A stretch of 64,000 bases of DNA from Parcubacteria group bacterium (GTDB lineage: Bacteria > Patescibacteriota > Minisyncoccia > Phycocordibacterales > Phycocordibacteraceae), in assembly GCA_028286525.1 (NCBI GenBank), contig JAQBRL010000020.1, forward strand, positions 7,444 through 71,443, read 5' to 3'. The notes under the pieces were generated by a model. That model saw only the letters and a program-made list of their open reading frames with translations. It did not search any database and was not told where the DNA came from. Below are positions 6,943-63,116 of the stretch, piece after piece. Each line of letters begins with the position of its first letter. Position 1 is the first letter of the stretch. The position numbers and the translations under genes were made by a program.

Positions 6943-7974
6943 ATGAAGTATCTCGCTGGAAAAAAGATATTCGTCGGTCTTTCCGGCGGCGTTGATTCCG
7001 CGGTCACCGCCGCGCTCCTGCAGCAAGCGGGCGCTGACGTATACGGCGTATTCATCAAGGGTTGGTATCCCCCGGAGCTCCTGTGCACCTGGGCAAGCGA
7101 CCGTCGTGACGCGATGCGCGTGGCTGCCCATCTAGGCATTCCATTCCATACGCTCGACGCGTCGAAGGAGTACAAGCGATCGGTCATTGACTATCTCGTC
7201 CGTGAGTATGGCGCGGGACGCACTCCCAATCCGGACATTATGTGCAATCGCGACGTAAAATTCGGCGTGTTCTACGAATTCGCCAAAGCCTACGGAGCGG
7301 ACCATATCGCGACCGGGCACTACGCCCGTCAGGAAGGGGGGAGACTTCTCCAAGGACTCGACCCCGAGAAGGACCAGAGCTACTTCTTGTGGGCGATCTC
7401 GCCTCTCGCGCTCTCCATGACCCTCTTTCCGCTCGGCGCGCTCCATAAGAGCGAAGTGCGTACGCTCGCGAAGAGTTTCGATCTTCCGAATGCGGACAAA
7501 AGGGATAGTCAGGGCATCTGCTTCCTGGGGCCGGTTTCCATGGATGATTTTCTCCGCGCCGAGCTCCCGAACCAGCCCGGAAAAGCTATCGATGAGAGCG
7601 GTATCGAAGTGGGCCAGCATGACGGCGTCCTGCTCTCGACGCTCGGTGAGCGCATCGCGCTTAGGAGCGCCGTTCCAGGACCATGGTATGTACTCGAAAA
7701 GGACATTCCGAATAACGTTCTCGTCGTCGCGAAGGAGCGCAGAGCGGAAGCGAGCACGTCCGCACTACACCTTGCAGATGCGAACTGGTTCACCAAACCC
7801 AGCGAGAGCGAAGAAGTGCACGGGCAGTATCGGTATCATGGGCCGTTTGTCGCGGGCGTGCTGCGCGCAGACGTGTTCGTCCCGAACGAACCTGCGACCG
7901 AACCCATCGCGAGCGGCCAATCGCTGGTGCTGTACCAGGGCGACGAAGTACTCGGTGGTGGTATTATCGGGTAA
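6943..7974 (+). CDS. mnmA: tRNA 2-thiouridylase MnmA
   Basis: A PP-loop SGGVDSAV motif is present and the layout matches MnmA. The start was chosen at MKYLAGKK. Confidence 0.9.
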   Translation: MKYLAGKKIFVGLSGGVDSAVTAALLQQAGADVYGVFIKGWYPPELLCTWASDRRDAMRVAAHLGIPFHTLDASKEYKRSVIDYLVREYGAGRTPNPDIMCNRDVKFGVFYEFAKAYGADHIATGHYARQEGGRLLQGLDPEKDQSYFLWAISPLALSMTLFPLGALHKSEVRTLAKSFDLPNADKRDSQGICFLGPVSMDDFLRAELPNQPGKAIDESGIEVGQHDGVLLSTLGERIALRSAVPGPWYVLEKDIPNNVLVVAKERRAEASTSALHLADANWFTKPSESEEVHGQYRYHGPFVAGVLRADVFVPNEPATEPIASGQSLVLYQGDEVLGGGIIG

Positions 7975-8810
7975 TGCCAGTAGAGATAGTTAAAACCGAC
8001 GGAACCACCGAAGCGTTCGATGGCATGAAGCTCGAGTGGTCGCTCCGTCGCGCAGGCGCAACGACGCATACCGCCGAGCGCATCCGGCACACCATCGAAG
8101 CTTCCATTTCGGCCGGTGCGCCCACGCAAGAGATATACAAGCGCGCGTTCCAGATGCTTCGCCATGACGCGCGGCCTGCCGCCGCGCGCTACAGCCTGCG
8201 GCGGGCCTTATTCGAGTTCGGCCCTTCGGGCCATCCGTTCGAGAATTACGTTTCCGAACTTTTCAAGAAAGAAGGATGGTCCGTGGAATATCGCCGCGTC
8301 ATTCCCGGTAAATGCGTATCGCACGAAGTCGACGTGTACGCGACCCGCAATGGGGAATACCTTGCGGCGGAACTCAAATATCATAATGACCCCGGGTACA
8401 AGACCGACGTGAAGACAGCCCTGTACGTGAAAGCTCGCTTCGACGATATCTGGCAATGCGATCCCAAACATGATGAGCACTGTCCGGTCGATCACGGATT
8501 CCTGATAACCAATACGAAATTCACGCGCGATGCGGTGCAGTTCGCCACCTGCTCCGGTATCCAGCTCCTGGGGTGGAGCTACCCCGCAGAGGGAAGCCTC
8601 TATGACCGCATAGTCGCGACCGGTCTCTATCCGGTGACGGCGCTCACCATGCTCAAGAAGACCGAAAAGAGATTGCTTATCGACCAAGGCATCGTTACCT
8701 GCGACCAGGTACGCGAGAACCGCGACGTGCTCCGCGCGCTCAATATCGCTCCGGAACGCATCGGTACTATACTCGCCGAGGCCAACACCCTTTGTAACTC
8801 CTACGCATAA
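7974..8810 (+). CDS. ATP-cone domain fused to an Mrr/PD-(D/E)xK restriction-endonuclease-like domain
   Basis: The N-terminus is ATP-cone-like (VEIVKTDGTTEAFDGMKL...). The middle region has the HEVDVY...ELKYH catalytic signature. Confidence 0.65.
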   Translation: MPVEIVKTDGTTEAFDGMKLEWSLRRAGATTHTAERIRHTIEASISAGAPTQEIYKRAFQMLRHDARPAAARYSLRRALFEFGPSGHPFENYVSELFKKEGWSVEYRRVIPGKCVSHEVDVYATRNGEYLAAELKYHNDPGYKTDVKTALYVKARFDDIWQCDPKHDEHCPVDHGFLITNTKFTRDAVQFATCSGIQLLGWSYPAEGSLYDRIVATGLYPVTALTMLKKTEKRLLIDQGIVTCDQVRENRDVLRALNIAPERIGTILAEANTLCNSYA

Positions 8811-24834: not shown

Positions 24835-24909
24835 CTTTCGCGGATAGAGCGATGTCGTGAGCGCTTCATTTTTTGACTAGCTTCATAAATTCAGGCATAT
24901 TCTAGATAT

Positions 24910-25461
24910 ATGCGGGATGAAGACGTGACCATAGAAACCGACGGCTCGGAAGAGCCAGGGGCAAGCGAGGAAGAGCTCGAAGCGGTCGAAAGCCGAGTGG
25001 ATTCGAAGGTGGCAAAGCTGAAAGCCGAGCTCGAGCACGCCAAGAAGGAAAAGCAGGAGTATCTCGACGGCTGGCAGCGCGCCAAGGCCGACTATGTGAA
25101 CGCTCTGAAACGCTTCGAAGAGGACAAACGCTCTGCGATCGCGCTCGGTCAAACCAAAGCGGTACTTCTCTTCATGCCCGCGCTCGATTCGCTCGCACGC
25201 GCGCGCCAAAGCGGCGAGGCTATGCCAGCGGGCTTCGAAGCTATCGCCAAGCAGCTGGAGGAAGCGGGAAAAGCCATCGGGCTCACGCCTATCGGCATCG
25301 TGGGCGAAAAGTTCGACCCGAACCTGCATGAGGCGCTCGGCCAGGATGCAGCAGCTTCAATGGAAGACGATGACACCGTCACCGCCATTCTCGAGCCAGG
25401 CTGGAAGGCGGGAGAAGCTGTTATCCGACCAGCGAAGGTACGCGTCGGACATTTCGAGTGA
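24910..25461 (+). CDS. grpE: Nucleotide exchange factor GrpE
   Basis: An acidic N-terminus, a coiled coil and the GrpE C-terminal beta domain (GWKAGEAVIRPAKVRV) are present. Confidence 0.9.
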   Translation: MRDEDVTIETDGSEEPGASEEELEAVESRVDSKVAKLKAELEHAKKEKQEYLDGWQRAKADYVNALKRFEEDKRSAIALGQTKAVLLFMPALDSLARARQSGEAMPAGFEAIAKQLEEAGKAIGLTPIGIVGEKFDPNLHEALGQDAAASMEDDDTVTAILEPGWKAGEAVIRPAKVRVGHFE

Positions 25462-25476: not shown

Positions 25477-26115
25477 ATGGAAAATGCACCTGACCGGATA
25501 CACGAAGGAGACCGCGGCGCTCAGGCGCTCGACGGAACGTTCGAGAAACTCTATGGCCGCGCACCTGACGGTACCTTTCGTGGCCTTATACCGGATAGCA
25601 ATCTCGATCAAGTGGTCTACTATCACGACGAGACTGGAAAGCCCCATTGGCACTTCATTTCATACGGTTTCAGCCAGTTAGGCGGGCAGCCGCAGGACGA
25701 AGCGGCACCCAGTGACGAGGAAAGCGGTTCCGGTTACGAAGTTACCTTCCGTATCCCACGTACTGATGAGGCAACGGCACCTCAATGGGTAGATCGCGCC
25801 TACAACGACTTCGCGAATTACTCCTTCGAGAATCAAATCGCCTTTCGTCCGTATGACTATGTCGACTACGACTTCGATACGGGAAAGGAGCACGGCTATG
25901 CCGGCTTCATGTTCGTGCAGGATTCACGTCTCAAGGAAATAGAGACGCCCAATGGTACGGTCGCATTCCTACAGGTGGTCCCCGTAAGCGCAGAGCAGCT
26001 CAATACGCTCAAGGTAGCGGAGCCGGATACGCAAGCCTACACGGCTGCAGCCAAGCGCATAATAGAAGAGCTCAAGAGCACTGAGACAGATCTCCTCATC
26101 GCCAACTTTTCATAG
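25477..26115 (+). CDS. SUFU (suppressor-of-fused)-like domain protein
   Basis: HWHFISYGFSQLGG, YEVTFRIPR and AFLQVVPVSAEQL match the SUFU-family HWHY(I/V)SFGLS, (F/Y)E(L/V)TFR(L/I) and FLQIVGV blocks. Confidence 0.7.
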   Translation: MENAPDRIHEGDRGAQALDGTFEKLYGRAPDGTFRGLIPDSNLDQVVYYHDETGKPHWHFISYGFSQLGGQPQDEAAPSDEESGSGYEVTFRIPRTDEATAPQWVDRAYNDFANYSFENQIAFRPYDYVDYDFDTGKEHGYAGFMFVQDSRLKEIETPNGTVAFLQVVPVSAEQLNTLKVAEPDTQAYTAAAKRIIEELKSTETDLLIANFS

Positions 26116-26204: not shown

Positions 26205-28109
<1,905 letters not shown>

Positions 28110-28163
28110 CGTACGCTCCTCAACAGCTCCTCGCTTGCCTTTGCGAGCGTCGTATCGCATTGT

Positions 28164-28490
28164 GTGCGAGGACCGAGGGAGGGCCGCATGAAGATAGAAG
28201 ATCGGATACTCCGAACCCTGCGTTTGAGCAATCAGGCGTCATGGCTCACCACGGCAGAGATCATTTCTGCCGCGAAGGGCCGCGATGGCCACGATATGCA
28301 GCTCTACCTGGTCATTGTGGAGCTCGGCAGGCTCGAAAGCCTTGATCTGGTCGAAAGCCGGAAACGTCCCCTTGACGATGAGCTGGAAGTCACCGAGTTC
28401 CATCTCGCCGAAGGCGGAGTAGAGCGTCGTGATTCCGGACCGACCACAGGTCCAGAACCGCATACGCTCAAGCAACGAGAGCTCGCGTAG
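28164..28490 (+). CDS. Hypothetical small winged-helix-like protein
   Basis: About 100 aa, with a predicted HTH-like segment (RILRTLRLSNQASWLTTAEIISAA); the true start may be M at 28188. Confidence 0.4.
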   Translation: MRGPREGRMKIEDRILRTLRLSNQASWLTTAEIISAAKGRDGHDMQLYLVIVELGRLESLDLVESRKRPLDDELEVTEFHLAEGGVERRDSGPTTGPEPHTLKQRELA

Positions 28491-28494
28491 GAAC

Positions 28495-28523
28495 GGGCGG
28501 CATGCGCAAGCAGCCGCCCTTTG
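28495..28523 (+). terminator. GC-rich hairpin (gggcggc ... gccgccc) followed by TTTGCC
   Basis: The stem was read directly. It lies after the wHTH ORF and before paralog 1. Confidence 0.45.
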
Positions 28524-28565
28524 CCTTATCTAAGCGAAAGGGTATAAAGCAGCTGGAGGTGAGCT

Positions 28566-28835
28566 ATGAAGCAACCAAAACCATTCAGTCTGAACGACGC
28601 CGTCACCTGGAAGGCCGCGAGGGATCAGAACTATCGGGTGCGGGAGTATGCACGAGCCTTCCGCACCCATGAAAAAGGTCCGTTCACCGTCGAAGCCCTC
28701 GTCATGCGGAATGTCTGGTGCCTGGTACTGAAAGACGCGAACGGAACGCTCTTCGACCCCGAGAAAACACCTGCGTTGTTGAGAACTCCGGCGTTGTTCC
28801 CCGCGTGCTGGTTCGAACGAGTGTATACGGAATGA
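28566..28835 (+). CDS. Small hypothetical protein, paralog 1 (D-VTW...GPFTVE family)
   Basis: It shares DxVTW-x22-GPFTVE with the ORF at 28912, and a GGAGG RBS sits 8 nt upstream. Confidence 0.45.
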   Translation: MKQPKPFSLNDAVTWKAARDQNYRVREYARAFRTHEKGPFTVEALVMRNVWCLVLKDANGTLFDPEKTPALLRTPALFPACWFERVYTE

Positions 28836-28859
28836 GGGCGGATGCGCACGCATCCGCCC
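28836..28859 (+). repeat. Near-perfect palindrome gggcggatgcgcacgcatccgccc (hairpin or terminator)
   Basis: An 11-bp stem was read directly. It closely resembles the hairpin at 63055..63080. Confidence 0.5.
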
Positions 28860-28911
28860 TTGACCTTTCTCGATGGGTGTATGCTTGACATAGGACAGGA
28901 GGGACGGAGCA

Positions 28912-29184
28912 GTGAAGATGTTTGAGATATTCAATAGAGGCGACCAGGTCACCTGGCGACCCGAGGATGAGTTGCCGGAAGTCATCAAGTCTAATTTGAC
29001 TGACAATGTCGCAGAGTTCGGACTCGGACCCTTTACCGTCGAACGAATCGAGAACGCCCGGAGCTTCGCTGGATTCAATCCGGCACATCCGCAACGTGTC
29101 ATGGTTTCGTTCGAAGGCAAGCTCATTCTCCATCAATTCAGCGGCATTTGTTTCGCGAAAGCGAACCTGGACGGGACGCACTAA
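28912..29184 (+). CDS. Small hypothetical protein, paralog 2
   Basis: GDQVTW...GLGPFTVERIE matches paralog 1, and an SD-like aggaggga lies upstream. Confidence 0.45.
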   Translation: MKMFEIFNRGDQVTWRPEDELPEVIKSNLTDNVAEFGLGPFTVERIENARSFAGFNPAHPQRVMVSFEGKLILHQFSGICFAKANLDGTH

Positions 29185-29203
29185 CGCGCCTCGTCCACCC
29201 TTT

Positions 29204-29232
29204 TTGATACGTTCCGGCATCAGGTATATACT
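29204..29232 (+). promoter_or_regulatory. Sigma70-like promoter for dnaJ: TTGATA, 17-nt spacer, TATACT, giving a leaderless or near-leaderless dnaJ mRNA
   Basis: The -10 ends 8 nt before the dnaJ ATG at 29241. Confidence 0.4.
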
Positions 29233-29240
29233 GCTGCTCT

Positions 29241-30317
29241 ATGGCCAAGAATTACTACGAAACTCTCGGCATCGACAAGAAAGCGAGCCCGGACGATATA
29301 AAGAAAGCTTTCCGCAAGCTTGCCCAGAAGCATCACCCAGACAAGGGCGGGGACGAGGCGAAGTTCAAGGAAATCACCGAGGCGTACTCGGTGCTCGCTG
29401 ACGAGAAGAAGCGCCGCGAATACGACTCGTACGGGCAGACGTTCGCAGGTGGAGCACCTGGCGGCGGGGGATTCGACCCCTCGCAATTTTCAGGCGGATT
29501 CGGCGGAGGCGTCGAGTTCGATCTGAACGACCTCTTCGAGGGATTCGGCGATATCTTCGGAGGCGCAGCAGCCCGCGGTGGCCGCGGCCGCATGAAGCGC
29601 GGGCGGGATATTTCCGTCGATATAGAGATCTCGTTCAAGGAATCCATTCTCGGCGGCAAACGCTCCGTGCTTATCTCGAAAATAGATAAATGCGAGGTAT
29701 GCCAGGGAAGCGGCGCGAAACCAGGAGCCGAGATGGAAACCTGCAAGACCTGCAATGGAGCAGGCCGCATCCATGAGACCCGGGACTCCGTACTGGGAGC
29801 CTTCACGAGCGTGCGCACCTGTCCGACCTGCGAGGGCACAGGCTCGGTACCGAAAGAGAAGTGCGAGAACTGCACGGGCCATGGCGTTCTCAAGAAGGAG
29901 GTGGAGCTCAATATCGACATTCCGCGCGGCATCGACGGCGGAGAGATGATACGCATGCCGGGCATGGGCGAGGCAATAAAGGGCGGCGTCTCCGGCGACC
30001 TCTACGTCAAAGTGCATGTGAAGCCGCACGCCGTATATCGCAAGGATGGCGCGAACCTCATCATGGAGCTTCCGGTGAAGCTTACGGACGCGCTTGTCGG
30101 TACTACCGTCACTATCACGACCATCGACGAAAAGACGCTTGAGGTGAAAGTGCCTCCGATGGCGAAGACCGAGGAGATACTTCGCATCAAAGGTCGCGGC
30201 GTTCACTATGACCAGGCGACCGGCGACCTCCTCATCCGCGTGACCGTGACGCTCCCGAAGAAGCTCTCGAACAAAGCCAAGAAAGCAATCGAAGACCTCA
30301 AGACCGAAGGACTGTAA
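29241..30317 (+). CDS. dnaJ: Chaperone DnaJ (Hsp40)
   Basis: A J-domain with HPD, a G/F region, four CxxCxGxG zinc-finger repeats and a C-terminal domain are present. Confidence 0.95.
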
Positions 30318-30360
30318 TAGCGCGCCAGTCGCTCGTACTACTGCGGTATAATTACGCTTT

Positions 30361-32187
30361 ATGCCGCCACAGGATCCTATTAAAAATACGCGGGCATGGC
30401 CCGTGCTGAAAGATTATACGAAAGCGGCGTTACGCTACCCGAACGCGTTCCTCTTCACGCTCGCGACGGTGATCGGCGTCCAGGTAACGGAGATCATCGC
30501 GCCTCTCTTCCTACGGCAATTCATCGATACCGTCTCAGGTCTTTCCACGCAGCACGTCATTACGCCCGCGGTCATACACTCGTTAGTCGGGTATATATGC
30601 ACCATCGCAGCAACGTGGCTGCTCTACCGCCTTCTTACGCTTGGAGAGATGCGCATCGAGTCTCGCGTGCCGGCGGATCTCACGAACAAGGCATTCGGAT
30701 ACCTCATACACCATAATTACGACTTCTTCGTAAATAACTTCGCCGGTACCCTTACGCGGCGCGTAACGCGGTACGCGCGCGCATTCGAACAAGTGTTCGA
30801 CACCGTGATGTCGAACTTCATTCCGACGTTCGTCTATACCATTGGAGTCATTGTGGTGCTGTATACGCGCAATCATGCGCTCGGCATCGGCCTGTTGCTG
30901 TGGACCCTGTTCTTCCTTGCGCTCATCTACTTCATGACGCAATGGAGGTACAAATATAAGCTCATGCGAGCCGCCGAAGACAGCCGTCTTACGGGGGCCC
31001 TTTCGGATTCCATCGGAAACCATACCGCGGTCCTCTTTTTTGCCGCCGAAGCCCATGAAAAGTCGAGGATAGGGCATATCGTGACCGACTGGTTCGATGC
31101 GAACATAAAGGCCTGGTCCGCCGATCTATGGAACTACACCATCCAGGGGTTCCTTACCCGCGTCGCGCAAGTCAGTTTGCTGCTCGCGGGACTCTATCTG
31201 TGGCAGAAAGGCCTTCTCACCGTCGGCGATTTCATACTCATACAGATCTATATGCTCACCCTTATGGACCGCATCGGGAACATAGGGAGCAGCATGCGGC
31301 GTATCTATGACGCATTCGCTGAAGCCAATGAGATGATACATATCTTCGAGCTGCCGCATGCGATCACGGATGATCGCCTTGCGGTATCGCTGATAGTTTC
31401 TGACGGGAAAGTGGAGTTCGGGAACGTGAACTTCTCGTTCATTCCTGAACGGCCTATCCTCAAGGACTTTTCGCTTACGGTGAAAAGCAAGGAGAAAGTG
31501 GCCCTCGTCGGGCCCTCCGGTGCAGGGAAGTCCACCATTACGAAGCTGCTGTTGAGGCTGTACGATCTCAAAGACGGTGCCATCAAGATCGATAACCTGG
31601 ATATCCGTCATGTGACCCAGAAAACGTTACGCGAGTCCATCTCCTTCGTACCGCAGGAGCCCGTGCTGTTCCATCGCACCCTGCACGAGAACATCGCCTA
31701 TGGCAGGCAGGACGCGAGCCTGGAAGAGATCATCGAAGCGGCGAAGAAGGCCCACGCGCATGAATTCATATCGACATTGCCGCTGGGGTACGACACCTTC
31801 GTGGGAGAACGCGGAGTGAAGCTTTCCGGCGGCGAGCGCCAACGCGTCGCTATCGCGCGCGCCATTCTCAAGAATGCCCCTATCCTCGTGCTCGACGAGG
31901 CGACCTCATCCCTCGATTCGGAGAGCGAGCACCTCATCCAAGAGGCGCTCGATACGCTCATGGGAGGGAAGACGGTCATCGTCATCGCTCACCGCCTTTC
32001 GACCATCATGAAGATGGACCGCATCGTCGTGATGGAGCAGGGGAGCATCGTCGCGCAAGGGACCCACGAGGAACTGCTCGCGCAAGCCGGCTTGTATAAG
32101 AAGCTCTGGAGCATCCAGGCAGGCGGTTTCCTTGGCGGGGAGAAAGAAAGCGGCGAAGAGGAGACCGCAACGGAGGAAGGGGAGTGA
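30361..32187 (+). CDS. ABC transporter, fused permease/ATPase exporter (MsbA-like)
   Basis: Six TM helices, Walker A GPSGAGKST, signature LSGGERQR and Walker B ILVLDEATS are present. Confidence 0.9.
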   Translation: MPPQDPIKNTRAWPVLKDYTKAALRYPNAFLFTLATVIGVQVTEIIAPLFLRQFIDTVSGLSTQHVITPAVIHSLVGYICTIAATWLLYRLLTLGEMRIESRVPADLTNKAFGYLIHHNYDFFVNNFAGTLTRRVTRYARAFEQVFDTVMSNFIPTFVYTIGVIVVLYTRNHALGIGLLLWTLFFLALIYFMTQWRYKYKLMRAAEDSRLTGALSDSIGNHTAVLFFAAEAHEKSRIGHIVTDWFDANIKAWSADLWNYTIQGFLTRVAQVSLLLAGLYLWQKGLLTVGDFILIQIYMLTLMDRIGNIGSSMRRIYDAFAEANEMIHIFELPHAITDDRLAVSLIVSDGKVEFGNVNFSFIPERPILKDFSLTVKSKEKVALVGPSGAGKSTITKLLLRLYDLKDGAIKIDNLDIRHVTQKTLRESISFVPQEPVLFHRTLHENIAYGRQDASLEEIIEAAKKAHAHEFISTLPLGYDTFVGERGVKLSGGERQRVAIARAILKNAPILVLDEATSSLDSESEHLIQEALDTLMGGKTVIVIAHRLSTIMKMDRIVVMEQGSIVAQGTHEELLAQAGLYKKLWSIQAGGFLGGEKESGEEETATEEGE

Positions 32188-63009: not shown

Positions 63010-63054
63010 TTCCGTAGGTACGTGAAAGAATTCGAGGGATCGAACGTCTAAAAA

Positions 63055-63080
63055 GGGCGGAACGCGCACGCGTTCCGCCC
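63055..63080 (+). terminator. Terminator hairpin gggcggaacgcg-ca-cgcgttccgccc followed by TTTCG; probably bidirectional
   Basis: A 12-bp perfect stem is flanked by an A-run upstream and a T-run downstream. Confidence 0.6.
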
Positions 63081-63116
63081 TTTCGCGTCGTTTGCTATAC
63101 TAAAAAAATACTCGGT

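Follow-up and report, generated by a model that had tools for sequence, protein, structure and literature searches.

What are the small genes that lie between dnaK and dnaJ in the 64,000-nt stretch of the Parcubacteria group bacterium contig JAQBRL010000020.1 analysed here (the window), and do they belong to the chaperone system or only to the place in which they are found? The first-pass annotation of this DNA had remarked that dnaK and dnaJ are 1.1 kb apart, and the coordinates of the open reading frames (ORFs) agree: dnaK (26205–28109, 634 aa) and dnaJ (29241–30317, 358 aa), both read as ORFs on the plus strand, form the upstream and downstream borders of a variable spacer of 1131 nt. Three small ORFs occupy this spacer, also on the plus strand: a first ORF of 100 aa (28188–28490), sp1 of 89 aa (28566–28835) and sp2 of 90 aa, which has a GTG start (28912–29184). 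They correspond to JWO84_453, JWO84_454 and JWO84_455 of the NCBI record of this metagenome-assembled genome, where sp2 is annotated in an 88-aa form starting at 28918. We favour, with a probability of roughly 0.55, the reading that these are lineage-specific accessory genes with their own ribosome-binding sites, which reside in a spacer that tolerates change and separates two independently transcribed units.

Judged by sequence comparison, sp1 and sp2 are real genes and ancient tandem paralogs of a rare, fast-evolving family of 80–90-aa proteins. The motif that had been pointed out in both, D-x-VTW followed after 22–23 aa by GPFTVE, is present exactly as described, and a check for such proteins beside dnaK and dnaJ in other genomes was positive. 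When an sp1+sp2 profile was run exhaustively with HMMER on 1.84 billion representative proteins, only four true homologues were recovered (P0006, P0009, P0010 and P0011; E-values of 1.5e-6 to 7e-4), all of them encoded between dnaK and dnaJ. Four large repeat proteins from the same search (P0004, P0005, P0007 and P0008) were set aside as artefacts, because their scores were built from 5–13 separate stretches in highly repetitive sequence. A further sp1-type gene, encoding 81 aa, was found by local ORF reading at 7679–7924 of the related locus L082; its product is 49% identical to sp1 (tblastn E 1e-22). Counted by locus, family members are located between dnaK and dnaJ at 6 out of 6 distinct loci (the window, L082, L083, L084 and the contigs of P0006 and P0009). 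The members are significantly similar to one another and share the pattern GD-x-V-T/R-W ... G-x-GPF-x-V ... G ... F-S/P-x-x-x-F, the signature of the family being GD-x-VTW, then FG-x-GPFTVE, then FSGI-x-F. Columns F7, D11, G39, P40, F41, G69 and F76 of the family alignment are invariant, and no stretch of 7–10 columns is conserved throughout. Word-indexed homology searches with all three spacer proteins returned the queries themselves and nothing else, and the sp proteins had no significant match in Pfam, NCBIfam, PHROG, PADLOC or PDB sequence searches.

The two genes had been taken for paralogs, and this holds, although the direct comparison of sp1 with sp2 is weak (13 identities over 46 positions, BLASTP E 0.006 in a single comparison). 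The relationship becomes firm through the intermediate P0010, which matches both the sp1 type (E 1e-10 to 1e-21) and the sp2 type (E 3e-8 to 8e-13). Type A comprises sp1, the 81-aa protein of L082 and P0010, and is basic, with an isoelectric point (pI) of 8.1–10.2 (9.3 in sp1); type B comprises sp2, P0006, P0009 and P0011, and is acidic to neutral, with a pI of 4.9–7.7 (5.5 in sp2). Pairwise BLASTP among family members reaches a best E-value of 1e-29; sp1 and P0010 are 49% identical over 39 aa (E 9e-11), and sp2 is 36–43% identical to P0006, P0009 and P0011 (E 1e-17 to 2e-20). Since P0010 matches both types, the sp1/sp2 duplication is old and predates the split from the L082 lineage; contrary to what had been suspected, it is thus neither recent nor internal to this spacer. 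Furthermore, the three small spacer ORFs of L082 and L083 differ from each other by eight synonymous and no non-synonymous substitutions, which implies purifying selection on these ORFs.

What kind of proteins sp1 and sp2 might be is suggested by structure prediction. The AlphaFold2 model of sp2, built from a six-sequence alignment, has a predicted local distance difference test score (pLDDT) of 82.9 and a predicted template modelling score (pTM) of 0.72, and consists of a strand, a 14-residue helix and four further strands, the strands covering residues 12–15, 41–48, 61–67, 70–77 and 81–83. This predicted model fits the five-stranded, strongly bent, antiparallel barrel known from solved SH3, Tudor and KOW domains, so that the predicted fold of the sp family is an SH3-like small β-barrel with a helix inserted between strands 1 and 2. 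Foldseek comparison of the sp2 model with the PDB and with viral models gave no significant match. Compared with known SH3-like barrels (Tudor, KOW, PetP, NdhS/NdhO, PsaE, R67 DHFR, YorP and HspQ/YccV), the sp proteins are alike in being small, free-standing modules, a type of protein that attaches to larger partners, whereas sequence identity is at most 24%, Foldseek E-values are above 0.5 and there are no Pfam or PDB profile matches. Because a sequence-profile match is lacking, the resemblance is one of fold and not of family, and the sp proteins further differ from these barrels in the 14-residue helix between strands 1 and 2 and in their own signature.

Is the separation of dnaK and dnaJ peculiar to this genome, as had been supposed? 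We surveyed 80 loci anchored on GrpE in species-representative genomes and 80 loci anchored on the clade-specific DnaK C-terminus in metagenomes. Among relatives with a DnaK at least 72% identical, the dnaK–dnaJ gap ranges from 85 to 4332 nt, and gaps with unrelated cargo turn out to be normal in the clade. Across a wider set of related loci, the cargo includes a basic family of ~110-aa proteins with an RRHPF motif (L003, L084 and L121), secreted Cys-rich proteins (L004 and L085), a ParE toxin (L134 and L144), a Bro-N domain protein (L153), a peptidase S51 (L127), a 23S_rRNA_IVP protein (L159) and a JAB + ThiF + ThiS-like cluster (L098). A profile hidden Markov model of the seven-member sp family found no match in these surveyed loci beyond the loci already known. 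The nearest species-level relatives, L002, L003 and L004, do not carry the family, and six-frame searches of the spacers of L002, L003, L004, L085 and L121 revealed no decayed sp copies.

The sharpness of the borders of the slot is evident from the comparison of the window with L082. GrpE is 88% identical between the two, DnaK 93% (as it is to the DnaK of L083) and DnaJ 91–94%, whereas sp1 is 49% and sp2 36% identical. At the DNA level, homology (~84%) ends at the dnaK stop codon and resumes at 29237, 4 nt before the dnaJ ATG, and the spacer DNA in between is unalignable. The gene content of the slot also differs among carriers of the family. In L082 the order is grpE, dnaK, a 55-aa transmembrane peptide, an sp1-type gene, an sp2-type gene, an 89-aa ORF and dnaJ; L083 has the same order, but an internal deletion has left only a short remnant of its sp1-type gene, by our reading about 11 codons. 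The P0006 contig has dnaK, a 93-aa ORF, sp, dnaJ and an ABC transporter, the P0009 contig has dnaK, sp and dnaJ, and L084 has dnaK, a 113-aa ORF, sp and dnaJ. With 36–49% identity between members, the deletion in L083 and the absence from L002, L003 and L004, the sp genes, as far as genome comparison can tell, evolve fast and are dispensable.

Several additional features of these spacers were observed. Two more mini-genes are conserved in the spacers of the closest relatives and absent from the window. One, at 7489–7656 of L082, encodes the 55-aa single-pass membrane peptide. The other, at 8387–8656 of L082, encodes the 89-aa protein, whose GD-x-V...G..P-x-TV pattern is vaguely reminiscent of the sp motif, with no significant relation; as a candidate family member this third ORF of L082 and L083 was rejected, the hhalign probability being 0.8%, and it is not detectably related. 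L082 (7404–8935) and L083 (5801–7122) are 98.3–99.4% identical in the spacer and only ~95–96% identical in dnaK and upstream, which hints at a recent recombination or sweep of the spacer. The RRHPF family is a second family tied to this spacer; its genes (L003 12655–13005, L084 522–863 and L121 7352–7675) sit in the dnaK–dnaJ spacer, directly after dnaK in L003 and L084; their products have a pI of about 11, an RRHPF/DKRHPLF motif and no Pfam match. The cargo in the 4.3-kb gap of L098 (6354–10686) comprises a 492-aa protein together with Prok-JAB, ThiF/E1-like and ThiS/ubiquitin-like proteins, and resembles a prokaryotic ubiquitin-like conjugation or defence cluster. Finally, 17-nt arms at 621–637 and 1054–1070 of L084 form an inverted repeat (94% complementary) in which the RRHPF gene pairs with the GPFTV-coding part of sp, and 18-nt arms at 28076–28093 and 29126–29143 of the window form another (89% complementary) in which the dnaK 3′ end pairs with the FSGI-coding part of sp2; by a rough estimate, about 0.002–0.02 such long-range repeats would be expected by chance per region.

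The first ORF of the window stands apart from sp1 and sp2. Its product is acidic (pI 5.2), matched only itself among 5.8 billion clustered proteins and had no match in Pfam (E up to 1), NCBIfam, PHROG, PADLOC or PDB sequences (E up to 10); its single-sequence AlphaFold2 model, with a pLDDT of 41, is uninformative. The winged-helix-like character given to this ORF in the first-pass annotation is thus putative at most. Relationship to the RRHPF family of L003, L084 and L121 was considered and rejected (BLASTP E 4.7, hhalign probability 0.3%). By these searches the first ORF is an orphan confined to one genome, and the sp types occur singly, in pairs or with other partners. The three genes therefore do not form a single inserted cassette, as the first-pass annotation had envisaged. 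One may ask whether the first ORF is a gene at all, or whether this DNA is the 3′ untranslated region of dnaK, or encodes instead the antisense ORF that lies inside it (28239–28475, minus strand, 78 aa, TTG start), so that only sp1 and sp2 would be functional. A homologue is found nowhere, the confidence of the model is low, and antisense frames of real genes reach codon scores similar to its 0.42, the antisense ORF itself scoring 0.52. On the other hand, the ORF starts with ATG, 4 nt downstream of a strong Shine–Dalgarno (SD) sequence (GAGGGAGGG at 28175–28183) as every other spacer gene has, is followed immediately after its stop codon by a hairpin, displays the typical GC1>GC3>GC2 pattern and is annotated in the NCBI record. 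The SD, the ATG start and the hairpin just after the stop favour the first ORF as a gene, and we regard the non-gene reading as rather unlikely.

The SD sequences set the spacer genes apart from their surroundings. The observation that each of the three ORFs has its own was confirmed, with SD sequences of 7–9 nt located 4–8 nt before the start (GGAGGTG at 28555–28561 for sp1 and AGGAGGG at 28897–28903 for sp2). An SD-like core of at least 5 nt precedes all three spacer genes of the window versus 3 of its 44 plus-strand core genes (Fisher p 0.0012), and it was found in front of all eight spacer genes checked in L082, L084, L003 and L121, which makes the spacer genes a distinct class in the way they are translated. 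Their codon scores (0.23–0.42, versus 0.44–0.89 in core genes) are positive and at or below the low end of the core genes. Many genes of the window have a −10-like hexamer ending 6–8 nt before the start and no SD, examples being grpE (24873–24909), dnaJ (29204–29240) and the ABC transporter gene (30340–30360). This geometry suggests that leaderless or SD-independent translation may be widespread in this Parcubacteria genome; a literature search on leaderless translation or SD use in Parcubacteria gave no match.

The promoter reported for dnaJ, TTGATA-17-TATACT abutting the ATG, is indeed the best promoter-like match of the region (29204–29232, plus strand; 10 of 12 positions in a consensus scan), ending 8 nt before the dnaJ start. 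A −10 box of the TATAGT/TATACT type is found 7–8 nt before the dnaJ ATG in the window and in 13 out of 16 relatives, whatever the size of the gap, including loci in which dnaK and dnaJ are 85–104 nt apart, and most carriers of the box also have a TTTTGC/TTTGAT −35-like element ~17 nt further upstream. As it is kept at any gap size, the dnaJ promoter is not a consequence of insertion, and dnaJ is probably, on the evidence of this conserved element, an independent, leaderless or near-leaderless unit across the clade. In relatives, dnaK is directly followed by a strong, GC-rich stem-loop of 11–19 bp. A search of the window for the HrcA-binding CIRCE element (TTAGCACTC-N9-GAGTGCTAA) gave no match with up to three mismatches allowed.

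According to the favoured reading, dnaK and dnaJ would thus be separate transcription units, as the hairpin after dnaK in relatives and the dnaJ promoter suggest, so that the DNA between them could change without breaking an operon. The spacer would turn over fast and collect lineage-specific mini-genes; in the window, the slot would hold three independent small genes, each with a strong SD, separated by ordinary terminator-type hairpins. The SH3-like modules of sp1 and sp2, to the extent that the model is correct, would most plausibly have a nucleic acid or a further protein as their ligand, and an obligatory chaperone function would not be expected of them. Some observations weigh against this reading. 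Every known member of the family resides in one slot, a pattern that joint action with DnaK or DnaJ would equally predict. The small genes may be co-transcribed with the chaperone genes and heat-inducible, since folding reveals no strong terminator after either dnaK or sp2 in the window. The carriers are not all very close to each other: DnaJ of L084 is 83% and its ABC transporter 61% identical to those of the window, so the retention of sp at this locus spans considerable divergence. Moreover, promoters and terminators were assigned only by their match to a consensus.

Most of these observations lend some weight to the idea that sp1 and sp2 are clade-specific accessory factors of the DnaK system, either working like DafA or as HspQ-like adaptors, and stress-induced by read-through from dnaK. 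All members recovered by an unbiased search of 1.84 billion proteins are located between dnaK and dnaJ, and the fold-defining residues are kept across the divergence just described. There is also a precedent in DafA, which is about 78 aa long and is encoded after dnaJ in the dnaK-grpE-dnaJ-dafA operon. In Thermus thermophilus this small accessory factor binds both DnaK and DnaJ, assembles a DnaK3–DnaJ3–DafA3 complex and is displaced by substrate (PMC3727329). Similarly to DafA, the sp proteins are small and encoded within the dnaK gene cluster; by contrast, their genes are flanked by a dnaK and a dnaJ that are probably transcribed separately, and most close relatives lack them, having dnaK and dnaJ adjacent or separated by unrelated cargo. 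No Thermus protein is present among the ten matches of the family profile at E up to 0.001. Furthermore, one subtype has been deleted within the near-identical pair L082/L083, and an identity of 36–49% in sp, versus 91–94% in DnaK and DnaJ, is difficult to reconcile with proteins that dock to a conserved surface of the chaperones. The likeness of HspQ to the sp2 model is of the fold level only, HspQ ranking 35th. Dispensability, rapid divergence and unrelated cargo in the same slot weigh against a DafA-like or adaptor role, and, as the position between dnaK and dnaJ is a general slot for accessory genes, the chaperone link is unproven. We consider such a role unlikely, and still less probable its more specific form, in which the sp proteins would be new clade-specific SH3-like DnaK/DnaJ adaptors or assembly factors, produced by dnaK read-through and SD-led translation, with types A and B acting as a pair. 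A DafA-like or adaptor role is nevertheless the most interesting of the remaining readings.

The variability of the slot also brings to mind genetic conflict. The spacer genes could form a toxin–antitoxin-like or anti-phage module or encode host-interaction effectors, with the first ORF as a DNA-binding regulator, perhaps recognizing the GGGCGG palindromes of the spacer, and with basic sp1 and acidic sp2 as an interacting pair. Fast divergence and presence/absence polymorphism would fit, as would the opposite charge of the basic and acidic-to-neutral subtypes and the ParE toxin, the Bro-N protein and the JAB/ThiF/ubiquitin-like cluster that occupy the same slot elsewhere; perfect palindromes might function as operators, of which there is a third copy at 63052. 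However, none of the three proteins has a defence or toxin–antitoxin match (no PADLOC hit, and nothing below E 0.03 in Pfam and PHROG), and viral relatives were not found by phage DNA similarity or in the viral contig scans made, the viral match L205 having been discarded as a motif resemblance only. In addition, sp is single in the P0009 and L084 contigs, with no constant partner, and the first ORF is an orphan for which a helix-turn-helix is not supported. This reading is the least probable of those considered here.

Accessory genes in a permissive spacer, the reading we prefer, invite comparison with known hot spots for accessory, defence or mobile genes. As in those, the flanks are conserved (the dnaK stop codon and the dnaJ promoter), the cargo is variable, and presence or absence differs between near-identical strains (L082/L083). 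Unlike them, the slot displays no integrase, transposase, attachment site or target-site duplication, its cargo consists mostly of one to three tiny genes, and it is located inside a heat-shock gene cluster. Small co-oriented ORFs of unknown function with palindromic elements between them are likewise reminiscent of integron cassette arrays. Typical attC sites are imperfect palindromes of 57–141 nt with RYYYAAC/GTTRRRY core sites, and an integrase is encoded nearby. The spacer hairpins, by contrast, are perfect palindromes of 24–26 nt with neither GTTRRRY core sites nor extrahelical bases, and each spacer gene is equipped with a separate SD and perhaps with a separate promoter; the integron reading was rejected on this hairpin anatomy. 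The genes adjoining the spacer, to which the search for an integrase was confined, include no integrase-like ORF.

The hairpins themselves, noted before as GC-rich elements after the first ORF and after sp1, do fold. Hairpin 1 (28495–28519, plus strand) consists of GGGCGGCATGCGCAAGCAGCCGCCC followed by TTTGCCTT and has a free energy of −23.3 kcal/mol (z −2.1); hairpin 2 (28835–28860, plus strand) consists of AGGGCGGATGCGCACGCATCCGCCCT followed by TTGACCTTTCT, has a free energy of −25.4 kcal/mol (z −5.3) and forms a perfect stem of 11–12 bp with a GCAC-type loop. The two share a 26-nt direct repeat, 85% identical and 340 nt apart. Their stems are strong, but their tails are interrupted (UUUGCCUU and UUGACCUUUCU) and a consensus terminator scan did not call them. 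Equivalent GGGGCGGC...GCCGCCCC hairpins with U-runs (UUUU tails) occur between the small genes of L082, L083 and L084, and the one between the sp1-type and sp2-type genes of L082 and L083 is the positional equivalent of hairpin 2. The GGGCGG-N4-16-CCGCCC arrangement was observed three times in the window versus 0.17 times expected. Its third occurrence, AAAGGGCGGAACGCGCACGCGTTCCGCCCTTT at 63052–63083, lies between convergent ORFs and shares the GGGCGG..GCGCACGC..CCGCCC design of the spacer pair; either a common style of terminator or a small repeat element is conceivable. GC-rich perfect stem-loops of 9–15 bp are present at about a dozen sites of the window, several of them just after gene ends. 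With stem-loops of the same style after many genes and a near-copy at 63052–63083, the hairpins lose the status of special cassette boundaries that had been attributed to them, and are most readily interpreted as ordinary terminators or attenuators that came down with the locus. For hairpin 1, a weak terminating or attenuating role downstream of the first ORF is probable. A candidate weak promoter for sp1, TTTGCC-17-TATAAA (28520–28548, plus strand), was recognized by eye between hairpin 1 and sp1; the consensus scan did not call it.

Collectively, the new element at this locus is a family of small proteins that has a very narrow distribution and a predicted SH3-like fold, and is known so far at one locus only. 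In one Parcubacteria clade, the spacers of the heat-shock cluster (grpE–dnaK and dnaK–dnaJ) appear to be slots in which accessory genes turn over fast, with a conserved and probably leaderless dnaJ promoter as a boundary. Should the family work with DnaK and DnaJ after all, it would be a rare case of a lineage-specific co-chaperone, and this in organisms whose proteostasis machinery is minimal. Otherwise, the locus would keep its use as a handy marker site for accessory, defence or host-interaction genes in genomes of the candidate phyla radiation, and one would still have to explain why the spacer genes carry an SD when the core genes mostly do not.

The surroundings of the spacer in the window are as follows, all on the plus strand. 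Upstream of dnaK are grpE (24910–25461, by ORF reading) and a gene for a 212-aa SUFU-domain protein (25477–26115; Pfam PF05076, E 8.6e-23). The latter is absent from the grpE–dnaK spacer of L082, L083 and L003, and other relatives have different content there, so that grpE–dnaK looks like a second variable slot. Bacterial SUFU-like proteins have often been described as immunity proteins of polymorphic toxin systems. Downstream of dnaJ, an ABC transporter gene (30361–32187, by ORF reading) follows, which is absent after dnaJ in L083. The arrangement of the first part of the spacer was also recovered elsewhere: positions 27386–28889 of the window are 100% identical to a 1504-nt contig assembled from the SRA run SRR13312994, which means that the end of dnaK, the first ORF and sp1 are present in a second, separate assembly.

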